This document shows positions 10,358 through 31,357 of a stretch of 39,548 nucleotides of DNA, in pieces (within the stretch, counting starts at the first letter, position 1; the number at the start of each line of letters is the position of its first letter). The stretch lies in IMG/VR virus record IMGVR_UViG_2519899835_000008. One strand, written 5' to 3'. This stretch comes from a virus (lineage: Duplodnaviria; Heunggongvirae; Uroviricota; Caudoviricetes). Under the pieces are notes generated by a model. That model ran no database searches and was not told the origin of the DNA. It saw nothing but the letters and a program-made list of their open reading frames with translations. The position numbers were made by a program, and so were the translations under genes.

Positions 10358-11471
10358 AGCTGATCCCCTGTTTTTTCATCTGCTGGCGAATAAAGGCATC
10401 AACATCGTCACCGGAACCACCCCGGCCCTTACTGTCCGGCTCTGCCGGAACGATAAAGCCGTCACGCGGTGCCAGTACCAGCCGGGTGACTTCCCCGTTA
10501 TGTTCATCAAGTAAAAACTCCACCTGACAGACCAGCAGTTCAGTCTGTTCTATACCGAAACGCAGGGCTGAAACACCGGTCAGCAGATTGACATCCCATA
10601 ACCGGCCATCATCCCGGAACCAGCCACGCACGGTGGCAGAAAACCGTTCTGAACGGGCAATCGCACGGCGCATTTCACGCAGGGCACGCTGCCGTGCACC
10701 GGTGGTGTCTGTCTGTTGATCGGCGAGGATGATTTTCGGCCGGTAGCGGCCGATCTGCTCATCACTGATGACGCCCACAGGTGCTGCCAGACGGGCGGCG
10801 GATTCGCTGTCTCCCCGTTTGCCACCACCGCGCCCGTGTCCCCGGACACGGTATTCGCTGTATCGTCCTCGCCAGTCCGTGTTGTAATCGGCATCAAGCA
10901 GGTTATCTCCCAGCACCAGTCTGTCCGTCTGCTGGCTTCCTGCCTGGGTGAACACCAGATCGCCGTCAGCATTACTGGTCACCAGCACCCCGCGATGCCG
11001 GGCAGCACGGGTCAGCGCATCCGCCACGGTTTCTGAGTTTTCCAGCGTAAAAGAGCTGAAGGGGCGTGCAGCCGTGTCGTCGTTAACCTGCCAGCGCACG
11101 GCTATCCCGAAGGGCGCACATAAATCTGCGGCAATCTGTGCCAGCGTCCGGTTGCGCCACTGGCTGCCGGGATGGATGGCGGCACAGTCCACCAGGTCGC
11201 CGGTTTTATCCCGACCGCTGATGCTGATCTGATGACGGGTTGCACTGATCCGCTGACTGACCTGATCCAGCCAGCCACTGATGACCGTCTGCCCGTTAAT
11301 TCTGAGCGTCAGGGACTGACCGGTTCGCAGGGCTGAGGGGATGCGCTCACCGGGCAGCATCAGCCCCAGTTCAAACGACCCGGCCAGATGCTCCAGCGAG
11401 CGACGGACGCTGACCGTCAGCCAGCCGGAAAAAATCTCACCGCCCAGATACAGTTCAACCCTGCTGCTCAC
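10347..11471 (-). CDS. Tail/baseplate hub protein (Mu P/gp44-like, P2 gpD-like)
   Basis: 374-aa ORF in syntenic position; short overlaps with neighbours typical of a tail operon. Confidence 0.55.
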   Translation of the reverse strand: MSSRVELYLGGEIFSGWLTVSVRRSLEHLAGSFELGLMLPGERIPSALRTGQSLTLRINGQTVISGWLDQVSQRISATRHQISISGRDKTGDLVDCAAIHPGSQWRNRTLAQIAADLCAPFGIAVRWQVNDDTAARPFSSFTLENSETVADALTRAARHRGVLVTSNADGDLVFTQAGSQQTDRLVLGDNLLDADYNTDWRGRYSEYRVRGHGRGGGKRGDSESAARLAAPVGVISDEQIGRYRPKIILADQQTDTTGARQRALREMRRAIARSERFSATVRGWFRDDGRLWDVNLLTGVSALRFGIEQTELLVCQVEFLLDEHNGEVTRLVLAPRDGFIVPAEPDSKGRGGSGDDVDAFIRQQMKKQGISFDE

Positions 11472-12825
11472 TAATCACCTCCACTGAATGGCCTCCGGGA
11501 ATGAACAGCGGATCAACAATACCGTTACGGCGCACAAAACGTTGCCAGCCGGTACTGTTCCCGGTGGCACGGTACAGGGTCACCAGTGCAGGCTCGGTGG
11601 TACGTACAGTCACTACTGTTGCACCGGGTAGCTGAACTCCCCGTGTATTCAGATCCTCTGTCAGTGCCAGTCTGGCATCACGAAGCGTCAGCGCCGTGGC
11701 GGTATACCCCTGCCCGGACAGTGTCATCACCTGCCGTTCGAGCGCTTCGCTTAAGTCACGGTTAATGCGCTGAAGATCAACTGAACTTTCCAGCCAGACA
11801 GGCCAGGTACGGTGGGCTGCGTCACTGTCCGGCAGGGTTTCCTGACTGAGAACCTGATCCAGCAGTTTTCCCACGGTCTGTGCCTGGGCCACCACGGCAG
11901 CACTCTGCATTACCGCCCGTATCAGACGAATATTCTTTTGTGCTGCCGGTGTCAGACCGATGAGAGTCTGCGGATTATCCTGCTCATCCAGCACGTAACG
12001 CAGGGAAGATAATGTCCTGTACAGTTGCGGCATTCCCTGAGAGACGGCGGATGTCGTCCGACCGATACTGCCTCCGGGCCGGGTATTCAGGCCTCCTGAA
12101 GACAGTGACGGCAGCGATGGCAGGGTGATCAGGGCACTGAAAAGCCCCGCAAAAGATGAGGCCATGCGGGAAGGTGCTGTCAGTAATGCCGTGGCATTCC
12201 CTTTCAGCGCCGTGAACGTGGCAGTAAAGGCACTGATATCCTGTACAATCCCCATGCCGGAAACGGCATTTTCCAGGGCGGACACCTTATCGCTGATGGT
12301 TTCGGTCATTGCCTGGACATCGTGCATTCCGTCAGAAATCACCGTCCAGCCCGCTTCCAGGGTTTCAAAAACCTTCCCGAGCGCGGTGGTACTCTTCTGC
12401 TCCAGAATGGCGGCCGTGTCCTGTGTGACAGCAGGTGCGGTATCATCACTTACCGGCGTGACATTAATGGTGAACTCAACCACGCCCTGTTCAGCAGCGT
12501 TATAACGACTTTCAAAGCTGTTTATCAGCACATTTAACGTGCCGTAATCCGGGTGAAGCAGCTCCCCGGCACCGGGAGCACGAAGGGCATCACGCAGACG
12601 ATTTCGCTGTGTCTGAACATCATCCCCCATCACAAGTACACTGAACGTAAATTCAGCCAGTTTAGGTCCCAGATCGTCTGCACCACCGGTTTCCCGTAAC
12701 GGATACTCCCGACGGACAATGTTTCGCCCGCCACGTTCGCGCTGCTCACGCCAGACGAGGAACGGCACACCACGGAACGCACCACGACCGTCACCAGAGG
12801 CCATAATTCCCTCCGTTCCAGACAT
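11455..12825 (-). CDS. DNA circulation protein N-like (Mu gp43-like)
   Basis: 456-aa ORF directly downstream of the tape measure gene; start may be the Met at about 12804. Confidence 0.55.
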   Translation of the reverse strand: MSGTEGIMASGDGRGAFRGVPFLVWREQRERGGRNIVRREYPLRETGGADDLGPKLAEFTFSVLVMGDDVQTQRNRLRDALRAPGAGELLHPDYGTLNVLINSFESRYNAAEQGVVEFTINVTPVSDDTAPAVTQDTAAILEQKSTTALGKVFETLEAGWTVISDGMHDVQAMTETISDKVSALENAVSGMGIVQDISAFTATFTALKGNATALLTAPSRMASSFAGLFSALITLPSLPSLSSGGLNTRPGGSIGRTTSAVSQGMPQLYRTLSSLRYVLDEQDNPQTLIGLTPAAQKNIRLIRAVMQSAAVVAQAQTVGKLLDQVLSQETLPDSDAAHRTWPVWLESSVDLQRINRDLSEALERQVMTLSGQGYTATALTLRDARLALTEDLNTRGVQLPGATVVTVRTTEPALVTLYRATGNSTGWQRFVRRNGIVDPLFIPGGHSVEVISEQQG

Positions 12826-21743: not shown

Positions 21744-21864
21744 ATTGCCTCCGCATAAAGGATGAATATAAAATAAACAGGCGGTCAGTGTACGCTTAAC
21801 TGGTAAAGTCGGTGCCTGCCTCCGGGTGGATCATGTATGCGGGTTCGACCCCCGCCACTGACCG

Positions 21865-24769: not shown

Positions 24770-26433
24770 TACCAGCCCCCCCGATCAAATTCATGATATG
24801 CCTCATCGTCATCACGATAACCGCCCTCCATTGCCCGCGACCGCTCCGGTAGCGCCTGACAGGCTGATTCATCCAGGATGAAACCCTCCATGTATGACGC
24901 CCGGTTTGCCATACAGAGTGCCACGGCAAAATCACCATGGCGGCGGGCGTTCGCAGCCGTTGCGTTCTGGTCCTTCGTGCGCCCCTTGTCGATTTGCGGG
25001 ATACCATTCACCACCTTCACATGGCGCAAATCATCAAGCGTGGTCTGATGGCGGGCGACGAGGATATTCTGATCTTCAAACTCGGCTTTCAGTTTTGGCA
25101 TCCACTCGCCGTACCACTTCGGCGACAACATCACGCAGTCGATGATGTCCGGGCCAAAGGCCAGCAGTGCGGCCTCTGCCAGATAGCCGCCGTTACCGGT
25201 GGCGTCGAACGCCGCACCGACCAGCGCCGGAACGCGGGTCAGGATGTACATCATCACCTGTTCCTGCTGGGCATACGGCAGGTTGCGCAGCTCCACGCGA
25301 AACACCTCGCGCTTTGCCAGGAGTTCGGTGATTTCCAGCAGCACAAAGCAGGACAGGTCACCGGTGCGGGCAAAGTCTTCCCCGAAGCTGAAGCGGGAAC
25401 GGGGATTTAATTTCTCTGTAAGCGGTTTTAAATGTTCTTCACACCAGGTTAAAACTTCCGATTCACGCAGCCATGCGGCACGGCTGATGAAGTCGTCCGG
25501 GGCTTCAAACGTCAGAATCGGGATGTCACGAATCATCGCCATTTCAATAAGCGCGTGAGGAATATAGGCACCGCCGGATTTTTTCGGGATACAGCCGTAT
25601 TCCTCGTCGGCATCCTCACGGGTCGGGGCGTTTTTGTAGAGATCATCACGCCATTTCTGCTCGCTTTCCGGTGACCATTCCTGATCGGTGACGTAACAGA
25701 TACGACGGTACAGCCCGTCCGCAATGGCATCATCCAGGGTTATGCGGTGGACGCTGTAATCCTTGCGCCCCTCGCGGGCTTCCTGAATGTACTGATTAAA
25801 CAGATTATCGACGCCGTTATGCGTGGAAATAATGCGCACGCGTGCGCCCCACATGGTAAGCGCCATTGCCGCCTTGAGAAGCTCATCCAGTGACTCGTGG
25901 AACGCGGCTTCATCAATCACCACATCCCCCTGAAGACCGCGCAGGTTTGACGGACGGGAAGACAATGCCTGAATTTTGAATCCACTGTTCGGAAAGCGGA
26001 TCATGTAGGTCAGAATTTCTTCTTTTTTATCCCGATCCCAGAATGTCTGCTCATACACATCAGCATCTGCCAGCTGGTTAAAGGCACGGGAGAACAGCGC
26101 GCAGGCAGAAATATATTCCAGCGCCATCTCCTGTTTTGACCCCACATAAAACACATTACGGCCACCACGACGCTTAGGCTTTGCGGCGGTAATGACGTTA
26201 CGCCCGGCTTCCGCCCAGGTAAGCCCGGTGCGTCGGGATTTCTCCGCGATGCAGACCTGACTTTCATCTGCAAACCAGCGGGCCTGATAATCCAGAAACA
26301 CCGGCATATCACCGGGCAAATCAAGGCTGTCCGGCACATCCACGCCCAGCAGGGCTTTTTCACCGGACAGATCAATTTTGCGGGGAGGTGTCATTTGTAT
26401 CAGTGAAGGAGACTTTTCTTTGGCTTTGTTCAT
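24769..26433 (-). CDS. Terminase large subunit
   Basis: 554-aa ORF upstream of portal; size and position match Mu gp28. Confidence 0.75.
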   Translation of the reverse strand: MNKAKEKSPSLIQMTPPRKIDLSGEKALLGVDVPDSLDLPGDMPVFLDYQARWFADESQVCIAEKSRRTGLTWAEAGRNVITAAKPKRRGGRNVFYVGSKQEMALEYISACALFSRAFNQLADADVYEQTFWDRDKKEEILTYMIRFPNSGFKIQALSSRPSNLRGLQGDVVIDEAAFHESLDELLKAAMALTMWGARVRIISTHNGVDNLFNQYIQEAREGRKDYSVHRITLDDAIADGLYRRICYVTDQEWSPESEQKWRDDLYKNAPTREDADEEYGCIPKKSGGAYIPHALIEMAMIRDIPILTFEAPDDFISRAAWLRESEVLTWCEEHLKPLTEKLNPRSRFSFGEDFARTGDLSCFVLLEITELLAKREVFRVELRNLPYAQQEQVMMYILTRVPALVGAAFDATGNGGYLAEAALLAFGPDIIDCVMLSPKWYGEWMPKLKAEFEDQNILVARHQTTLDDLRHVKVVNGIPQIDKGRTKDQNATAANARRHGDFAVALCMANRASYMEGFILDESACQALPERSRAMEGGYRDDDEAYHEFDRGGW

Positions 26434-26681
26434 CAGGCTTTACCTGTCAGAATGCTTTTGATTCGGAACTCAAGCTCTTCAGTCATCACGTCCACGCCAC
26501 TCAACTCATCAGTGACAGCCCCTGCCAGCAGCGAATGCAGTTGTTCCAGGGATATTTCCCCGGCAATGCTGAGTTCAGTCAACTCACGACACGCTTTTAT
26601 GGTTTCAGGAGGTAACTGTGTTGCAAGACTGAATGCCTTCTGATGAGCACTGCTCATCAGTGAGCGGTTATCTGTTACCAC
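26433..26681 (-). CDS. Hypothetical protein whose C-terminus is paralogous to the terminase small subunit C-terminus
   Basis: GTG start with AGGAGG ribosome-binding site 6 nt upstream; C-terminus AVTDELSGVDVMTEELEFRIKSILTGKA parallels AVTDELRGVDGMSEQIEFRIRQMLLGKA of the upstream gene. Confidence 0.55.
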   Translation of the reverse strand: MVTDNRSLMSSAHQKAFSLATQLPPETIKACRELTELSIAGEISLEQLHSLLAGAVTDELSGVDVMTEELEFRIKSILTGKA

Positions 26682-27275: not shown

Positions 27276-27566
27276 TTACCCCCTTGCGCGTGGTTTCTTC
27301 ACACCCGGAACAGTGGCACGACCTTCCGCCACATCCTGACCCCGGCCGGTCAGTTCAGCGATGAAATAACCGTTAACAAGCGTGCGCTTACGCACCAGTC
27401 CCTGCTCAGCAAGCCAGGCAATGTGGGTGTGAACGGTGTCGCGGGACACGCGGTGGCCGTAATCATCCAGGCAGTCCTGAAGCACGGATTCGCCCAGTTC
27501 GCCGTTGTAATCCGCCAGCGACCGCAGAATGACAAGACGCTGATCTTCAGTAATGAAATCACTCAT
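27276..27566 (-). CDS. Hypothetical protein, Mu gp26-like
   Basis: 96-aa ORF in syntenic position between lysis and terminase genes. Confidence 0.45.
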   Translation of the reverse strand: MSDFITEDQRLVILRSLADYNGELGESVLQDCLDDYGHRVSRDTVHTHIAWLAEQGLVRKRTLVNGYFIAELTGRGQDVAEGRATVPGVKKPRARG

Positions 27567-27870
27567 TGTGTTTTTTCCTTACAGCCTGCTCCAGCAGCAG
27601 TTCGTTCTGATGAGAGACGGATTTCAGGGTGGCGTTGGTGGCCTTTAGCTCACCGCGCAGGGTGGTGATTTCGATATTGAGTCTGTTCACCTCCTGCTGC
27701 GTGGGCAGGCCGGAAATCCGGCTCTCCACCCGCTCAACCCGATCGGAGAGTTTTTCAAAGGCCTCGCGGGGGACGAAGGTTTTGCGCATCAGCGCCATGA
27801 AGATCCCCCCGGCCGTGGCCGTTGCCGACAGGATCGGCACAACATAATCTTTAACGATGCTGACCCACAT
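27559..27870 (-). CDS. Membrane protein with N-terminal transmembrane helix and coiled coil (Mu gp25-like; possible lysis accessory)
   Basis: 103-aa ORF; hydrophobic segment VVPILSATATAGGIFMALM then heptad-like helical region. Confidence 0.45.
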   Translation of the reverse strand: MWVSIVKDYVVPILSATATAGGIFMALMRKTFVPREAFEKLSDRVERVESRISGLPTQQEVNRLNIEITTLRGELKATNATLKSVSHQNELLLEQAVRKKHNE

Positions 27871-28078
27871 GACCGGCCTCCATGATGTTCTGGCAGTTCA
27901 CACAACGGATGGCATCCGGCACGGCAACCAGACGGGCAGCCGGAATATCACCCCCGCAGTCCGCGCATACACGCCTGCCCGGTGTCTCCGCCACCCGGCG
28001 CTTACGTGTCAGCCGGTCACAAAGGGCGCGTTCTGTTGCCCGCTCCATGACAGCCTGAGCACAATCTGAATCATCCAT
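27851..28078 (-). CDS. TraR/DksA-family C4 zinc-finger protein
   Basis: CADCGGDIPAARL...RCVNCQ four-Cys motif typical of phage TraR/DksA proteins; start taken at Met MDDSDCAQ. Confidence 0.7.
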   Translation of the reverse strand: MDDSDCAQAVMERATERALCDRLTRKRRVAETPGRRVCADCGGDIPAARLVAVPDAIRCVNCQNIMEAGHVGQHR

Positions 28079-28088
28079 ACCTTTTTCC

Positions 28089-28364
28089 TTACTTCGTCTT
28101 TCCTGCCGGAACAGCAGGCGTTCCGGCCATATCAGTAAATTCATGTTGTCGCCGCGCCTCCAGACGACGAATACTGGCCTTGTCCACGTTGCAGTTCTTG
28201 ATCACCGCCAGCAGTTGCAGGTTGTAAGTGACCGATGCCCCAAACGTGAACGGCTCCGGCGCAGGAGGGACCAGGCAGTCAGCCAGCCATTCAGCGGGGA
28301 TCGGAACCGGCTGCACAGGCACGTATTTCACAGACGGCCCGGCGCACCCGCTCAGCCACATCAT
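28089..28364 (-). CDS. Outer-membrane spanin (Rz1-like lipoprotein) nested in the i-spanin gene in another frame
   Basis: Lipobox LSGC in LFLCLMMWLSGCAG followed by Pro-rich sequence; entirely inside or overlapping the i-spanin ORF; exact start uncertain. Confidence 0.5.
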   Translation of the reverse strand: MMWLSGCAGPSVKYVPVQPVPIPAEWLADCLVPPAPEPFTFGASVTYNLQLLAVIKNCNVDKASIRRLEARRQHEFTDMAGTPAVPAGKTK

Positions 28365-28719
28365 CAGGCACAGGAACAGAGGCCGCAGGCACTGTTGCCA
28401 GCGACCGGCGGACAACGCTCTGCTGCTCCTCGCTGTGCTGAATGTTCTGTTGCTTTTCATTCGTGGCCGCCTCACTGATTTGTGAAATGAGGTGCAGGGT
28501 GTGCTGCTGATTTGCCAGCACCTGACGCACCTCATCCCGCTCACGCACAAGTACCTGATTATTGCCCTCAAGACGCTGCGTCTTCTGGTGCATTCCCCAT
28601 ATCGCGGCAACCAGTACGGCGATAATCCCCAGCGCCGCCATGCTCGCCCCGGCAATCAGGGCCGGTAAGGGATTGTTCACCACAGCCACAGTGCCCCCCG
28701 CAGCGCCACAACGGCACAT
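28291..28719 (-). CDS. Inner-membrane spanin (Rz-like)
   Basis: N-terminal transmembrane helix AALGIIAVLVAAIWG followed by charged helical periplasmic domain; directly downstream of endolysin; start uncertain. Confidence 0.55.
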   Translation of the reverse strand: MCRCGAAGGTVAVVNNPLPALIAGASMAALGIIAVLVAAIWGMHQKTQRLEGNNQVLVRERDEVRQVLANQQHTLHLISQISEAATNEKQQNIQHSEEQQSVVRRSLATVPAASVPVPDDVAERVRRAVCEIRACAAGSDPR

Positions 28720-28753
28720 AACAGCGCAATCATGAGCGGTCGACAGAGCTGGT

Positions 28754-29254
28754 TCAGACTTTCGGCAAGTCGTAGCGACATAACCATTCATCCGCCGAAC
28801 GGCGGGCCTCAAGGCCGGGGAGTTTCACCCCCTTTGAATAAATCCAGCGGATATACTGCTTACAGGACGCGGGCATCTGTCCGGCATTGATAAGGCGCAG
28901 AAGCGTGGAGTTGCGGAAGTTCGTTTCACCGGCCCAGAAGATCCACGAAGCCAGCGCCACCGTCTGACCACGGGTAAGTGGCACCTGAACACGCCGGTCA
29001 ATGGCCGCAAAGGCCCATTTCATGTCCTTTTCCAGCAGTTCCAGACATTCTTCATCGGTTTTTGTCATACCCGGTTTCACATCCGGGCCGGTATGGCCGT
29101 GGCAGATGGTGGGGGTGCCGGTGGGGTCGAGATACGTGGTGTTTTCTTTCCCTTCCCAGTAGCCGGTGTAGTGCGTGGCAATAGTGAACGTCCCGGCTCC
29201 GGCCAGAACAAGGGCAATCAGCTTTTTACGCAGTGGCGCGGGGAGTTTTGGCAT
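28754..29254 (-). CDS. SAR endolysin (GH24 lysozyme with N-terminal signal-anchor-release domain)
   Basis: 166-aa ORF; weakly hydrophobic N-terminal segment LIALVLAGAGTFTIATHY; lysozyme-like core GTPTICHGHTG...GMTKTDEECLELLEKDMKW...VPLTRGQ resembling P22/P21 lysozymes. Confidence 0.75.
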   Translation of the reverse strand: MPKLPAPLRKKLIALVLAGAGTFTIATHYTGYWEGKENTTYLDPTGTPTICHGHTGPDVKPGMTKTDEECLELLEKDMKWAFAAIDRRVQVPLTRGQTVALASWIFWAGETNFRNSTLLRLINAGQMPASCKQYIRWIYSKGVKLPGLEARRSADEWLCRYDLPKV

Positions 29255-29325
29255 TGTTACGCTGTCTCATGGTGTTCTCTGAGCCAGCGTAACCGTGGAA
29301 AAAAGGGGGCAGGATTTGCGGAATA
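29255..29325 (-). promoter_or_regulatory. Candidate Mor/C-dependent late promoter and leader of the lysis operon
   Basis: Intergenic between activator gene and endolysin; minus-strand GCCCCC tract and a 9-bp inverted repeat GTTACGCTG / CAGCGTAAC ending at the endolysin start codon. Confidence 0.3.
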
Positions 29326-29748
29326 TCAGAAAAGCCGGGGCTGCGTGCGCTCCTGATGCAGGCGACGCTGGTTGCGGATAACGGAGTAAATCTGCGTCTC
29401 TGACATCTGGTAATGGCGGCGCAGGGTTTCAATTTTTTCACCCTGGCTCCAGCGGGAAAAAATCTCATTATTGCGCAGTTCGGTGAAAAGGGATTCACCG
29501 ACCGGGAGATAATAACCACGCCCGCCCATGTACCCGGCCTGTGCGGCCGCAACCTTACGGGCAAGCATTCCCGCCTGAGCAGATTCAATCCCCTGACGGT
29601 GCAGTTCAGCACTGATCACATCAACCAGGTCACGCAGCGTGCCGGGCCAGTTCTTTTTCAGCTCATCATCAGGAATATCATCCAGACGGTCAATCAGCGC
29701 GTGCAGCTGTTCGCTGTCACCAAACATGCTCATCTGTGTTTCAGCCAT
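29326..29748 (-). CDS. Mor/C-family late transcription activator
   Basis: 140-aa ORF with Mor-like pattern (N-terminal acidic FGD..L, central GGRGYYLPVG, C-terminal helix-turn-helix ...TQIYSVIRNQRR); positioned just upstream of the lysis genes. Confidence 0.7.
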   Translation of the reverse strand: MAETQMSMFGDSEQLHALIDRLDDIPDDELKKNWPGTLRDLVDVISAELHRQGIESAQAGMLARKVAAAQAGYMGGRGYYLPVGESLFTELRNNEIFSRWSQGEKIETLRRHYQMSETQIYSVIRNQRRLHQERTQPRLF

Positions 29749-29818
29749 ACCCGCCTCCGGTCATCATTACACAGGGCAAGTTTAAAATAAAAATCCCGCG
29801 CTGTGGCGGGATTTGGGG

Positions 29819-30328
29819 TTAAAAAGGGGAGGATTCTTCATACAGCCTGCAAACGCGCTCATAACTCATCACTGTACGCGCTGACATCCCCAGCACATCC
29901 AGCATCTTGCGACGGTGCCAGCGTTTGAGACGCTCCAGCACATCCGAGGCCAGTGCGGGGTGTTGCTCCAGCCACTGCCAGTTAGCCACACCTTCGCCAC
30001 CGTTCTGCGCGGCCGTCTGCGACTTCACCCAGCGGTTAAGGGCCGTTTCCCCGCCATCAGCGATAAAGCCCTGCCGGTGCATTACCTTCCAGATGGCGCG
30101 AATTTTGGCGGTCACCGTACCCGGTTTTAAGGCCCGGTTAACCGGTTTCTGACGCACTTTAAAACCGCGTTTTTTGAAAACATCCAGCACGCGGGATAAC
30201 TCATCCGGTGACATATCCCGGCAACTGGATTTGCCGGTGGCTGCCAGCAGAACGAATGTATAGGTTTCATCATCCAGGGCAAGCTCGCGCTTTGCCACAT
30301 GAATGGCGGATATCAGTTTCCCTCTCAT
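29819..30328 (-). CDS. GemA-like (Mu gp16-like) regulatory protein
   Basis: 169-aa ORF with N-terminus IHVAKRELALDDETY...TGKSSCRDMSPDELSRVLDVFKKRGF resembling Mu GemA/gp16 family. Confidence 0.55.
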   Translation of the reverse strand: MRGKLISAIHVAKRELALDDETYTFVLLAATGKSSCRDMSPDELSRVLDVFKKRGFKVRQKPVNRALKPGTVTAKIRAIWKVMHRQGFIADGGETALNRWVKSQTAAQNGGEGVANWQWLEQHPALASDVLERLKRWHRRKMLDVLGMSARTVMSYERVCRLYEESSPF

Positions 30329-30621
30329 GCTGTATCAACACTCCTGCTGATATGATAGATATTATTTTCCCGATCGAGCTGAACCCGATACTCCGGAGGA
30401 ATCACAAAAATATTAAAACCATCAACAGTTTTTATTCTTGAGTAGTATTCCCCCTTATGATATCTGGCAAGTGCATTAATCAGAGAAGCCGCCGCCAGCC
30501 CAATCAGGTATTTTTTATGAAAAATACTGATAACTTTCCGGCACAGCCATCGTGTAATGACGAATGCACCGAAAAACGATGTGATATATAAACACCAGAA
30601 CAACTGCGAACTACTGTCCAT
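30325..30621 (-). CDS. Hypothetical membrane protein (98 aa)
   Basis: Two hydrophobic segments (LFWCLYITSFFGAFVITRWL, LIGLAAASLINALA); overlapping start/stop with neighbours. Confidence 0.45.
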   Translation of the reverse strand: MDSSSQLFWCLYITSFFGAFVITRWLCRKVISIFHKKYLIGLAAASLINALARYHKGEYYSRIKTVDGFNIFVIPPEYRVQLDRENNIYHISRSVDTA

Positions 30622-30808
30622 TATCTTTCTCCTTATTCAGTCTTCTGCGGCATTCGGCACAGTCATCAGGGCTTTCAAATGTATCCGGCTCGCGATTATG
30701 AGCCAGATATAACCACCGCCCACATATACTGATATTTTCACCTGTTTTAAAAAAATGATGCTTCTTAGCCATCAATGGCCGCGCCCATCCAGCGGGTAGA
30801 CTATTCAT
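30611..30808 (-). CDS. Hypothetical small Cys-containing protein (65 aa)
   Basis: ORF with a CxEC motif and basic C-terminus; in an operon-like overlap chain. Confidence 0.4.
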   Translation of the reverse strand: MNSLPAGWARPLMAKKHHFFKTGENISICGRWLYLAHNREPDTFESPDDCAECRRRLNKEKDNGQ

Positions 30809-31175
30809 TAGCTTTATCCTCCATGCTGGACAGAATCATATGTATTAATGTCGGGCGTGGAGATATACGCATTTCATTAAGCGTCTGAAGGGCAGCAACA
30901 GCAGCCATTTTATCGGTGCCTCTGGCAATTTCTGCAAGAGAATGCACAATCCATAACGGACTTAACGCTACGGCTGAATCCAGAATCATGTCATCCATAA
31001 TAATTTCTGGCACATCCCGTTTGTCACATTCTTTATCCATAAAAGAAACGATTTTTTCCGCATCTTCCGGTTTCATACCTCCGGCGATAAGAATTTTACG
31101 ATATTCATAAGACGTTCTTAATTCAATGCTCATATTCATCTCCTGTAACTCTGACAAGGACGTGATTTTTCTCAT
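30801..31175 (-). CDS. Hypothetical protein (124 aa)
   Basis: ORF in overlap chain within the early region; no recognisable motif. Confidence 0.45.
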   Translation of the reverse strand: MRKITSLSELQEMNMSIELRTSYEYRKILIAGGMKPEDAEKIVSFMDKECDKRDVPEIIMDDMILDSAVALSPLWIVHSLAEIARGTDKMAAVAALQTLNEMRISPRPTLIHMILSSMEDKANE

Positions 31176-31357
31176 TTACGCCTCCCGGAAATACGAATGT
31201 ATATACCGATGAGAAAATCCATAATAAACAGGAAGAGCGACATCCTGATAAAGAACCAAATGTCAGGCATAATGGACAGGTTTCCTGTAATCGCAAATAT
31301 AAAACCAGTCCCCCACACTGGAACGATAATTGCGAAAAATACAAGTCTCTTTATCAT
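31172..31357 (-). CDS. Hypothetical small hydrophobic protein (61 aa, two predicted transmembrane segments)
   Basis: Sequence MIKRLVFFAIIVPVWGTGFIFAITGNLSIMPDIWFFIRMSLFLFIMDFLIGIYI is almost entirely hydrophobic; ATGA overlap with upstream gene. Confidence 0.4.
   Translation of the reverse strand: MIKRLVFFAIIVPVWGTGFIFAITGNLSIMPDIWFFIRMSLFLFIMDFLIGIYIRISGRRK

Follow-up and report, generated by a model that had tools for sequence, protein, structure and literature searches.

The closest described counterpart of the locus reported here is the lysis cassette of phage Mu, which comprises the SAR (signal-anchor-release) endolysin gp22, the i-spanin gp23, the o-spanin gp23.1, gp24, and the releasin gp25 (Chamblee et al. 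2022, PMC9239132; GenBank AF083977, in which the gp25 gene carries the annotation "releasin"). Mu has no holin, and its SAR endolysin is freed by gp25, a DUF2730 protein (PMC9239132). Both Mu gp22 and phage 21 R (R21) are experimentally proven SAR endolysins (PMC9239132). gp22 depends on the releasin through its adjacent basic pair K6 K7, and a glycine-rich run in the same protein, GGGVGG, has been suggested to hinder spontaneous release (PMC9239132). Mu gp25 speeds the release of foreign SAR endolysins too, and DUF2730 proteins are also found in Mu-like phages whose endolysins have no SAR domain (PMC9239132). A releasin is recognised in that work by a gene located at most five genes downstream of the endolysin, together with a partner SAR endolysin that carries adjacent basic residues in its tail (PMC9239132). 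With regard to the spanins, the overlapped architecture is defined as one in which the o-spanin starts within the i-spanin gene, in another frame, and ends beyond its stop (PMC6139136).

Here, we describe a lysis locus in a 39,548-nucleotide stretch of viral DNA (Caudoviricetes; IMG/VR record IMGVR_UViG_2519899835_000008), referred to as the window. The o-spanin stop and the endolysin start exactly delimit the region 28089-29254, and all of its features are located on the minus strand (Table 1).

Table 1. Features of the lysis locus and its flanks, with positions given in the window.
Feature	Position	Strand	Evidence and remarks
Late transcription activator, Mu C-like (Mor family)	29326..29748	-	Pfam Mor 4.9e-31; directly upstream of endolysin, as in Mu
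C-to-endolysin intergenic region, putative C-dependent late promoter (Plys equivalent)	29255..29325	-	
SAR-type endolysin (predicted), GH24 muramidase, homologue of Mu gp22 and phage 21 R	28754..29254	-	166 aa; PF00959 Phage_lysozyme 1.2e-35; phrog_7 endolysin 8e-51
Endolysin cytoplasmic tail (predicted), MPKLPAPLRKK	29222..29254	-	basic R9 K10 K11 adjoin membrane segment
SAR segment (predicted), endolysin residues 12-33, LIALVLAGAGTFTIATHYTGYW	29156..29221	-	22 uncharged residues, no Cys
36-codon ORF S36, putative hydrophobic peptide MVMSLRLAESLNQLCRPLMIALLCAVVALRGALWLW	28677..28787	-	between endolysin and i-spanin; unannotated, conserved
i-spanin, homologue of Mu gp23	28291..28689	-	phrog_214 "Rz-like spanin" 1.5e-31; N-terminal membrane helix, hydropathy 2.47
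o-spanin, LysC/Rz1-like outer-membrane lipoprotein subunit	28089..28460	-	PF23793 LysC 1.7e-17; phrog_3001 1.8e-41; +1 frame relative to i-spanin
Lipobox L-S-G-C (Cys39)	28344..28355	-	Cys39 codon 28344-28346
Dual-coding overlap, i-spanin 3' end and o-spanin 5' end	28291..28460	-	170 nt
gp24-position gene, TraR/DksA-type C4 zinc-finger protein	27851..28078	-	PF01258 8e-12; TIGR02419 2.4e-19; position as Mu gp24
DUF2730 membrane-tethered protein, homologue of Mu gp25 releasin	27559..27870	-	PF10805 1.2e-22

Gene order and genomic context

The region very probably represents the lysis cassette in the late operon of an E. coli prophage of the Mu-like transposable type, with genes orthologous one-to-one to Mu 22, 23, 23.1, 24, and 25. 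The cassette is surrounded by Mu hallmarks, among them GemA, Mor/C, Gp27, and a transposase. The order of genes, consisting of the C activator, endolysin, i-spanin, o-spanin, zinc-finger gp24, DUF2730 protein, gp26, and small terminase, is that of Mu. Pairwise identities to the Mu proteins amount to 39% for the endolysin (E=3e-33), 25% for the i-spanin (E=1e-6), 42% for the o-spanin (gp23.1, E=2e-16), 33% for gp25 (E=1e-18), 63% for gp26, and 57% for gp27. Family matches across the cassette comprise PF00959, PF23793, PF10805, phrog_214, phrog_3001, and phrog_736. The activator encoded upstream of the endolysin is closer to Mu C (39.7% identity) than to Mu Mor (27%). The intergenic region that separates the two genes resembles the annotated late promoter region of Mu in patches, among them AATCCCGCA and a T-run, and no sigma-70 consensus promoter was found within it.

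The arrangement of the cassette is kept in relatives down to 44% endolysin identity. The same cassette is present in 231 of 5426 complete E. coli genomes (~4%), O157:H7 strains among them. When one genome per species was scanned for the endolysin, a single locus was recovered, in Citrobacter braakii; the diversity of relatives was therefore drawn from viral contigs. Outside the cassette, a simple inversion of the tail-fibre segment was rejected as the cause of 416 differences from strain NCCP15648, as this segment is a divergent allele, 77-83% identical.

Spanin genes

Judged by their sequences, the two genes downstream of the endolysin constitute a two-component spanin pair with overlapped architecture. 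The AlphaFold2 model of the i-spanin (pLDDT 85) consists of a helix (residues 8-98), a Pro-rich linker, and a second helix (residues 109-126), and the protein has no Pfam match. Its start at 28689 is preceded by GGGGGG, and the Citrobacter clade has an ATG at the aligned position. An ATG at 28719 is an alternative start, and PGAP picks either of the two across genomes. A start further upstream was rejected, as the extension of the frame lacks conservation and shows a codon-position pattern opposite to that of coding sequence. RefSeq lists the i-spanin as "hypothetical protein" or "endopeptidase".

The o-spanin starts 229 nt after the i-spanin start, and its ATG at 28460 is kept across clades together with a GAGG/AAGG ribosome site. 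The predicted mature part of the protein comprises 85 amino acids, 11 of which are prolines (13%), with a non-Asp residue, Ala, at position +2. The lipobox cysteine is invariant in relatives, and the lipobox variants (LSGC, LTGC, LIGC, LTAC, and LVAC) all belong to the allowed set. The RefSeq start of the o-spanin ("lysC") is set five codons after the lipid-modified cysteine and thus leaves out both the signal peptide and the lipobox.

The first-pass annotation of this DNA had described a gene with an N-terminal transmembrane helix downstream of the endolysin and, out of frame within it, a lipobox-bearing ORF (LSGC), and had assigned both to a nested Rz/Rz1 architecture. The membrane helix, the lipobox cysteine, and the family matches of the two proteins (Table 1) bear out both descriptions and the identity of the genes as spanins. 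The nested architecture has to be revised: the two genes share only 170 nt, and the remaining 202 nt of the o-spanin gene, up to its stop at 28089, lie beyond the i-spanin stop at 28291. Since an embedded o-spanin lies wholly inside the i-spanin gene, the pair is of the overlapped type seen in P2 and Mu and not of the embedded type seen in lambda Rz/Rz1.

Endolysin

The endolysin contains the catalytic triad E34-X8-D43-X5-T49, and its start position is kept in relatives, as ATG or GTG. The weakly hydrophobic character of its N-terminus, and the SAR type proposed earlier on that basis, agree with our results. Half of residues 12-33 (50%) are Gly, Ala, Ser, or Thr, including 3 Gly. The best 19-residue Kyte-Doolittle mean of this segment is 1.39, below that of the neighbouring membrane helices in the i-spanin (2.47) and in the gp25 homologue (1.80). 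Residues 5-161 align with phage 21 R (PDB 3HDE residues 2-162, E=1.4e-25), N-terminal segment included, and the identity of 39% to Mu gp22 extends across residues 1-155. In these alignments, the SAR segment is matched to the SAR domains of R21 and Mu gp22. The tail motif that precedes it is found as RKK or RKR in relatives down to 55% identity. Compared with the Citrobacter clade, the SAR segment is 82% and the catalytic domain 83% identical. The assignment of the endolysin to the SAR type is therefore supported by homology along its length, and release from the membrane is predicted. P1 Lyz is activated through a disulfide switch. As the SAR segment holds no Cys, activation of the present enzyme would proceed by refolding and not by such a switch.

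Holin question and the releasin homologue

Within the late region, no annotated or family-recognisable holin was found, and no ORF of the region matched the holin families of Pfam or PHROGs. A search of the late region for a further convincing membrane protein likewise returned none. The only remaining hydrophobic ORFs are the 36-codon ORF (S36) and a 61-aa ORF in the early region (31172-31357). The first-pass annotation had also noted that no obvious holin lies adjacent, and the searches confirm this. It had gone on to ask which membrane protein triggers lysis, a question that overlooks the DUF2730 membrane protein encoded two genes downstream and that is not an open one for a Mu-type phage with a releasin homologue in the matching position.

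The PF10805 match of the DUF2730 protein covers residues 6-97 on profile positions 3-101 of 102, and its similarity to Mu gp25 is also recovered against the phage collection (E=5e-10). Hydrophobic residues 9-28 are followed by R29 K30, and the AlphaFold2 model displays helices at residues 2-28, 35-53, and 58-102. This predicted layout, like that of the i-spanin model, agrees with what is expected of the respective protein family. From the positive-inside rule alone, an N-out/C-in topology with a helical cytoplasmic domain is predicted. The gene is the fourth after the endolysin, on the same strand, and the partner endolysin carries R9 K10 K11. Across relatives, SAR endolysin and DUF2730 gene co-occur down to 44% endolysin identity. 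As a full-length homologue of Mu gp25 occupies the same relative position, the lysis trigger already has a likely candidate: the role of the holin is most likely filled by this protein.

Unannotated 36-codon reading frame

In relatives with endolysin identities down to 55%, S36 stays open and ends at the same stop position. It is also open in contigs L080 and L081 (48%), where its stop lies 56 nt, not 77 nt, past the endolysin stop. The hydrophobic core is retained despite many substitutions; of the alternative frames, one contains stops and the other is not conserved. The peptide has a single hydrophobic stretch, broken by Arg, and both ends of the ORF are constrained by overlapping features. 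Among close relatives, variable columns are distributed 9/6/15 over the three codon positions. In the diverse set, neither the excess at position 3 (P=0.27) nor that of position 3 over position 2 (P=0.09) reaches significance. The pN/pS of 0.3-1.3 covers 17 codons only, is noisy, and is similar in another frame. As a called gene, S36 was recovered neither by exact-sequence look-up nor by a HMMER scan of 1.84 billion representatives, and comparison with Pfam and PHROGs returned nothing significant. A degenerate DNA motif search for relatives matched 31 contigs, 30 of which belong to this phage family; in the remaining one (L138), the motif occurs by chance within a head gene.

Two other explanations for this stretch were rejected. 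A conserved RNA structure in the endolysin/i-spanin spacer finds little in a consensus energy of -5 kcal/mol and a covariation term of -0.1, and a -1 frameshift that would fuse the endolysin to the S36 frame finds no slippery heptamer. Such a fusion occurs in one contig only (L028), where an A-run is longer by one A, probably through a sequencing error.

S36, which is absent from Mu, could be an additional player in the cassette. A more specific proposal would make it a fifth lysis-cassette gene in this branch of Mu-like prophages (E. coli Sp18-like, Citrobacter, and relatives), encoding a putative single-pass timer or modulator of SAR endolysin release (holin-, antiholin-, or anti-releasin-like). 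We regard this proposal as speculative and unlikely. If it were true, "holin-less" transposable phages would control lysis in more ways than the Mu paradigm suggests, and S36, if a real gene, would extend the known components of lysis cassettes by a small membrane peptide.

Proposed course of lysis and alternatives

We postulate that lysis would begin when the C-like activator turns on the putative late promoter upstream of the endolysin. As suggested by homology to R21 and Mu gp22, the endolysin would be exported via Sec and remain inactive, tethered to the inner membrane by its weakly hydrophobic SAR segment, while the basic tail R9-K10-K11 would keep its N-terminus on the cytoplasmic side. 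The DUF2730 protein would accumulate and promote escape of the SAR segment from the bilayer with no holin involved, a step shown for Mu gp25. The freed endolysin would refold and then degrade the cell wall. Finally, the i-spanin and the lipoprotein o-spanin may form a periplasm-spanning complex and then disrupt the outer membrane, as shown for their Mu and lambda homologues.

The step assigned to the DUF2730 protein has one alternative in spontaneous escape of the SAR endolysin, with the amount of enzyme alone timing lysis. The DUF2730 protein would then serve, for example, in morphogenesis or DNA packaging, a role proposed on the grounds that its gene adjoins the terminase genes. Low-rate spontaneous release is a property of SAR endolysins in other phages. 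The SAR segment here, with its 3 Gly, is without the run suggested to make Mu gp22 helper-dependent (PMC9239132), so that the endolysin might release unaided. Other Mu-like phages moreover pair DUF2730 genes with non-SAR endolysins (PMC9239132), so the family could serve a different or wider function. Nevertheless, R9 K10 K11 match the feature of Mu gp22 behind releasin dependence, in which Arg substitutes for Lys, and the pairing of SAR endolysin and DUF2730 gene is kept down to 44% endolysin identity. Mu gp25 also accelerates the release of foreign SAR endolysins. We consider spontaneous escape improbable and retain the releasin homologue as the likely agent of release.

Release by depolarisation, as in phage 21, would call for an unrecognised holin or pinholin, either S36 or the 61-aa two-helix ORF. 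R21-type SAR endolysins are normally paired with pinholins (PMC9239132, PMC6139136), and both ORFs have features that suit the role. S36, an ORF absent from Mu, keeps its position and hydrophobicity in relatives whose endolysins are as little as 48% identical; the 61-aa ORF, which contains two strongly hydrophobic segments (hydropathy 2.38), resembles class II holins in size and topology. However, neither ORF matches a holin family in Pfam or PHROGs. S36 would have to act through one Arg-interrupted hydrophobic stretch, and its coding statistics are not significant, while the 61-aa ORF belongs to the early operon, upstream of gemA, and not to the late transcript. The analogous candidates in Mu, gp19 and gp20, proved to be non-holins (PMC9239132). 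With a releasin homologue existing in the cassette, a hidden holin appears quite improbable.

Least plausible of all, and given very little weight here, is an ordinary cleaved Sec signal peptide that would yield a soluble, untethered periplasmic enzyme: the N-terminus does read as an n-region, an h-region, and a small-residue pattern with formally acceptable -3/-1 sites (A18-G-A20|G21 or T24-I-A26|T27), but its hydrophobic core before A20 comprises only 6-7 residues, the segment aligns with the uncleaved SAR domains of R21 and Mu gp22 and is conserved like the catalytic domain (82% versus 83%), and an active muramidase secreted constitutively would kill the host once made.

The Mu lysis system, to which the cassette is orthologous, was published in 2022, and the present copy is itself uncharacterised. 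A Mu-like cassette with a likely releasin in place of a holin is largely ordinary, and the finding adds little as stated. Its combination of an R21-like SAR segment without a Gly-rich run and a type I DUF2730 protein nevertheless offers a natural test of the releasin model, the point at issue being whether releasin dependence stems from the basic tail alone, as Mu mutants suggest.

Comparison with known lysis systems

Like lambda Rz/Rz1, the spanin pair consists of an inner-membrane subunit with an N-terminal helix and a Pro-rich outer-membrane lipoprotein in the +1 frame. Rz1 is located wholly within Rz, whereas 54% of the o-spanin gene described here lies outside the i-spanin gene; on architecture, the lambda analogy drawn in the first-pass annotation therefore fails. 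P2 LysB/LysC form an overlapped two-component spanin as well, and the present o-spanin belongs to the LysC family PF23793, although the i-spanin differs from its P2 counterpart in having no Pfam match. Further, P2 has a cytoplasmic endolysin, K, and its cassette includes LysA and the holin Y.

The comparison group of the endolysin is formed by phage 21 R (PDB 3HDE/3HDF; pinholin S21-68) and E. coli RrrD (4ZPU). R21 is the best match among solved structures (1.4e-25) and shares the E-X8-D-X5-T triad. In phage 21, a pinholin gene adjoins R, whereas the present cassette has none that is recognisable and carries a DUF2730 gene instead.

Compared to Mu, the lysis proteins are just 25-42% identical, and several details differ. 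The SAR segment has 3 Gly in place of the GGGVGG run, the cytoplasmic tail is composed of 11 residues instead of 9, and the gp24 counterpart is a clear member of the TraR/DksA family. Endolysin and i-spanin are separated by a 64-nt spacer that holds part of S36, whereas the Mu genes overlap by 17 nt. Equivalents of Mu gp18, gp19, and gp20 were sought and none was found; the activator and the endolysin have no such genes between them. In both phages, the cassette has the same strand and order, following the C activator and preceding gp26 and the terminase genes, with five homologous proteins. Basic residues adjoin the SAR segment in both, and neither has a recognisable holin. The o-spanin extends 202 nt past the i-spanin stop in Mu as it does here, and its mature form comprises 85 amino acids in the two phages alike.

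Genomic setting of the lysis cassette

A Mu-like transposable prophage makes up almost the whole window and is read along the minus strand. Its low-coordinate end adjoins a truncated fimD/papC-type usher gene, annotated without its C-terminus, which suggests that the gene was broken by prophage integration. Several E. coli chromosomes match the cassette region (27500-29800) at 100% identity. Of 5426 complete E. coli genomes, 231 carry the cassette at 90-100% identity, O157:H7 strains among them, and it also occurs in two Stx-phage records as 'inserted Mu-like phage'. The genes are ordered as C-like activator, endolysin, i-spanin, o-spanin, zinc-finger gp24, DUF2730 protein, gp26 (winged helix) and small terminase, and the exact ends of the interval 28089-29254 are the lipobox ORF stop and the endolysin start.

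Features of the lysis cassette and of other loci in the prophage
Feature	Coordinates	Strand	Description
Endolysin	28754-29254	-	166 aa, GH24 lysozyme; PF00959 1.2e-35, phrog_7 8e-51
Small ORF	28677-28787	-	36 codons, MVMSLRLAESLNQLCRPLMIALLCAVVALRGALWLW; unannotated, hydrophobic, across 64-nt spacer
i-spanin	stop 28291	-	phrog_214 'Rz-like spanin' 1.5e-31; 25% identity to Mu gp23
o-spanin	28089-28460	-	123 aa, +1 frame; Pfam LysC 1.7e-17, phrog_3001 1.8e-41
DUF2730 protein	27559-27870	-	PF10805 1.2e-22, nearly full profile; 33% identity to Mu gp25
Mu hallmarks	window		Mu transposase, B-like ATPase, Gam, GemA, Mor/C-family activator, Gp27
Mu-like structural and accessory genes	window		portal, protease, major head protein, tail, baseplate, invertase, com/mom-type
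Truncated usher	1-555		fimD/papC-type fimbrial gene
Lambdoid/Stx-type genes	2426-5097	-	684-aa sialate O-acetylesterase-like (SASA + DUF6645, NanS-p-like), DUF1378 protein, DUF826 protein
Invertase	5183-5755		recombinase
Tail-fibre segment	5852-7132		tail fibre and fibre assembly
'tRNA-OTHER'	21784-21863		annotated in RefSeq record of near-identical strain
Inter-terminase ORF	26433-26681	-	82 aa
Mor/C-family gene	29326-29748 (in region 29326-30328)	-	single gene, directly after gemA
Hairpin	29791-29814	-	terminator-like, with T-run
Early-region block	30325-31357	-	small ORFs of unknown function
Membrane ORF	31172-31357		61 aa, two strong membrane helices

Endolysin

The endolysin carries a canonical catalytic triad (E34-X8-D43-X5-T49). 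Its N-terminus, MPKLPAPLRKK, is followed by 22 uncharged residues (LIALVLAGAGTFTIATHYTGYW), 50% of them Gly, Ala, Ser or Thr. The best 19-residue hydropathy of this segment is 1.39, under the 1.6 usually taken as threshold; the i-spanin helix (2.47) and that of the DUF2730 protein (1.80) are far more hydrophobic, and Mu gp22 scores 1.09. Among solved structures, phage 21 R (3HDE, E=1.4e-25) and RrrD (4ZPU) match best, and the alignment begins at residue 5, thus covering the N-terminal segment; over residues 1-155, identity to Mu gp22 is 39%. Experiments have established both R21 and Mu gp22 as signal-anchor-release (SAR) endolysins (PMC9239132). Composition, hydropathy and homology support the weakly hydrophobic, SAR-type N-terminus proposed in the first-pass annotation. 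By simple sequence rules, the N-terminus may alternatively be cleaved by signal peptidase.

Two types of SAR regulation have been studied structurally, R21 refolding and the P1 Lyz disulfide. As the N-terminal segment contains no Cys, regulation of a SAR endolysin at this locus would, by analogy, be of the R21 refolding type rather than the P1 Lyz type.

Spanins

The gene downstream encodes an N-terminal membrane helix, as first annotated. Its AlphaFold2 model (single-sequence, pLDDT 85) consists of a helix at residues 8-98, comprising the membrane helix and a long periplasmic helix, a Pro-rich linker and a second helix at 109-126, a predicted layout that is the usual one for i-spanins. Two candidate starts are present, ATG 28719 and GTG 28689. 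We prefer GTG 28689, because it aligns with the ATG of the Citrobacter clade, is preceded by a GGGGGG ribosome-binding-like run, and has upstream of it a substitution pattern opposite to that expected from coding in the i-spanin frame. RefSeq/PGAP uses both starts in different genomes, and calls the product 'hypothetical protein' or 'endopeptidase'.

The out-of-frame lipobox ORF reported earlier is likewise borne out. The o-spanin matches LysC at 63.5 bits (cut-off 27), is 42% identical to Mu gp23.1, and has the lipobox L-S-G-C with Cys39 and Ala at +2. The mature protein comprises 85 aa with 11 prolines, a length identical in Mu. Among relatives the Cys is invariant and lipobox changes stay inside the permitted set; these features are far beyond chance. 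ATG 28460 and the GAGG/AAGG site nine bases upstream are kept in E. coli and Citrobacter-type relatives, in which the internal TTG 28415 is not conserved. RefSeq/PGAP begins the gene ('lysC') at GTG 28331 (28089-28331), five codons past the lipid-modified Cys39, so that signal peptide and lipobox are lost from the annotation. Some Citrobacter-type relatives (contigs L030, L031, L035; ~4140-4460) have an extra Ala/Thr-rich ORF of ~100 aa between o-spanin and zinc-finger gene, which is absent from the window.

The genes of the first-pass annotation are real and its interpretation stands in part, but the o-spanin is not nested in the i-spanin: it shares 170 nt with it and continues 202 nt past its stop. 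Under the classification of Kongari et al. 2018 (PMC6139136), this architecture is overlapped rather than embedded. In that survey, overlapped pairs, typified by P2 LysB/LysC, were the commonest class (228 of 528 systems), distinct from the embedded lambda Rz/Rz1 (PMC6139136), whose defining feature the pair lacks. In the curated Mu record, i-spanin (10979-11365) and o-spanin (11226-11567) also overlap, with an identical 202-nt extension.

Release of the endolysin

A hydropathy scan of every annotated gene and all ORFs of at least 30 codons between 25.5 and 32.5 kb gave no credible late-region membrane protein beyond the endolysin, the two spanins and the DUF2730 protein, in agreement with the earlier remark that no obvious holin is immediately adjacent. 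The question that this remark raised, which membrane protein triggers lysis, is already answered in the literature on Mu. There, no membrane protein acts as holin, gp22 by itself is non-lytic, and its release requires the DUF2730 'releasin' gp25 (Chamblee et al., PMC9239132). Dependence is conferred by the neighbouring basic pair K6 and K7, where Arg can replace Lys, and the authors suggest that the Gly-rich run of gp22 possibly hinders spontaneous release (PMC9239132). Mu gp25 also helps foreign SAR endolysins, and in other Mu-like phages DUF2730 proteins are also found beside non-SAR endolysins (PMC9239132).

The DUF2730 protein of the window has hydrophobic residues 9-28 followed by Arg-Lys, giving a predicted N-out/C-in topology, and its model shows a membrane helix and two cytoplasmic helices. 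In the endolysin, R9-K10-K11 directly precede the SAR segment, a motif that relatives retain as RKK or RKR down to 55% identity; the segment has three glycines, in contrast to the Gly-rich run of gp22. SAR endolysin, overlapped spanins and DUF2730 gene co-occur down to 44% endolysin identity. By analogy with Mu, the endolysin would rather likely be releasin-dependent.

We propose that late transcription would be C-dependent; no sigma-70 consensus promoter was found upstream of the endolysin, and this region bears some resemblance to the late promoter annotated in Mu. The endolysin would be exported by Sec and tethered, the DUF2730 protein would assist its release, and the spanin complex would disrupt the outer membrane.

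A small ORF between endolysin and i-spanin

The one element of potential further interest is a small hydrophobic ORF whose start lies 34 nt upstream of the endolysin stop and whose end reaches 13 nt past the i-spanin start. In 23 distinct close relatives the ORF is open, with unchanged start and stop positions, as it is also at 68%, 55% and 48% endolysin identity (contigs L078, L079 and L080/L081, respectively), where in L080/L081 its stop lies 56 nt, not 77 nt, past the endolysin stop. Its hydrophobic core survives many substitutions (hydropathy 1.9-2.6 across all ten sequences in the comparison), while the other frames show stops in one and no conservation in the second. A degenerate DNA motif matched 31 IMG/VR contigs, 30 of the same phage family. 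No conserved RNA structure that would explain the conservation was found. The ORF is absent from Mu, its close relative L116, and L082/L083, and was predicted by no gene caller and matched no Pfam or PHROGs family. Its ends are constrained, the conserved endolysin C-terminus EWLC yielding 'MVMS' and the i-spanin ribosome site and start underlying 'LRGxLW'; the codon-position excess in the diverse set is not significant (P=0.09-0.27), and pN/pS is noisy with only 17 free codons. We regard a real gene as a roughly even bet, and a lysis regulator as a much longer shot.

In contig L028 (IMGVR_UViG_2526164665_000023, endolysin 3001-3579), an extra A in an AAA run by the endolysin stop creates a 192-aa fusion in which the endolysin continues in frame into the hydrophobic C-terminal portion of the ORF. 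This is probably a homopolymer sequencing error; if real, the fusion would anchor the endolysin at its C-terminus.

Other loci

The ORF between small terminase (gp27 homologue) and large terminase has no Mu gene in its place; its final 31 residues share 65% identity with the gp27 C-terminus, which suggests that part of the small-terminase tail was duplicated. The three lambdoid/Stx-type genes, of kinds typical for the late regions of such prophages, are located at the accessory end between invertase and com/mom and look like acquired cargo. Inverted copies of CGGTTTACGGGAAACGGT flank the tail-fibre segment beside the invertase. Compared with the near-identical strain NCCP15648, this segment is a divergent, partly rearranged allele (77-83% identity), whereas the remainder of the 39.5 kb has two base differences only. 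ARAGORN found no tRNA in the whole window, the 'tRNA-OTHER' position included. The Mor/C-family gene resembles Mu C (40%) more than Mor (27%), with the hairpin between it and gemA; the window lacks counterparts of Mu mor and gp18-20. The early-region block has ~45-47% G+C, against 55-60% in the late region. A 98-aa ORF within it matches solely an unknown-function PHROG, and the membrane ORF has no Pfam, PHROG or NCBIfam match.

Comparison with known lysis systems

Homology, synteny, composition and predicted topology form the basis at this locus; elsewhere, homologues have been shown to behave as SAR endolysins (R21 and Mu gp22), to have a spanin phenotype (Mu gp23.1) and to depend on a releasin. 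A Mu-type holin-less lysis cassette with DUF2730-assisted release is likely the overall explanation, within which it is almost certain that the cassette is orthologous to that of Mu. The gene order exactly matches that of Mu, and the endolysin and i-spanin genes, which overlap by 17 nt in Mu, are here separated by a 64-nt gap. Judged by sequence, the endolysin belongs to the R21/Mu gp22 SAR muramidase family, the o-spanin to the LysC family, and the gp25 homologue to the type I DUF2730 releasin family. As every defining feature that can be read from sequence was found, we class the cassette with the known Mu-type lysis systems, as an uncharacterised member.
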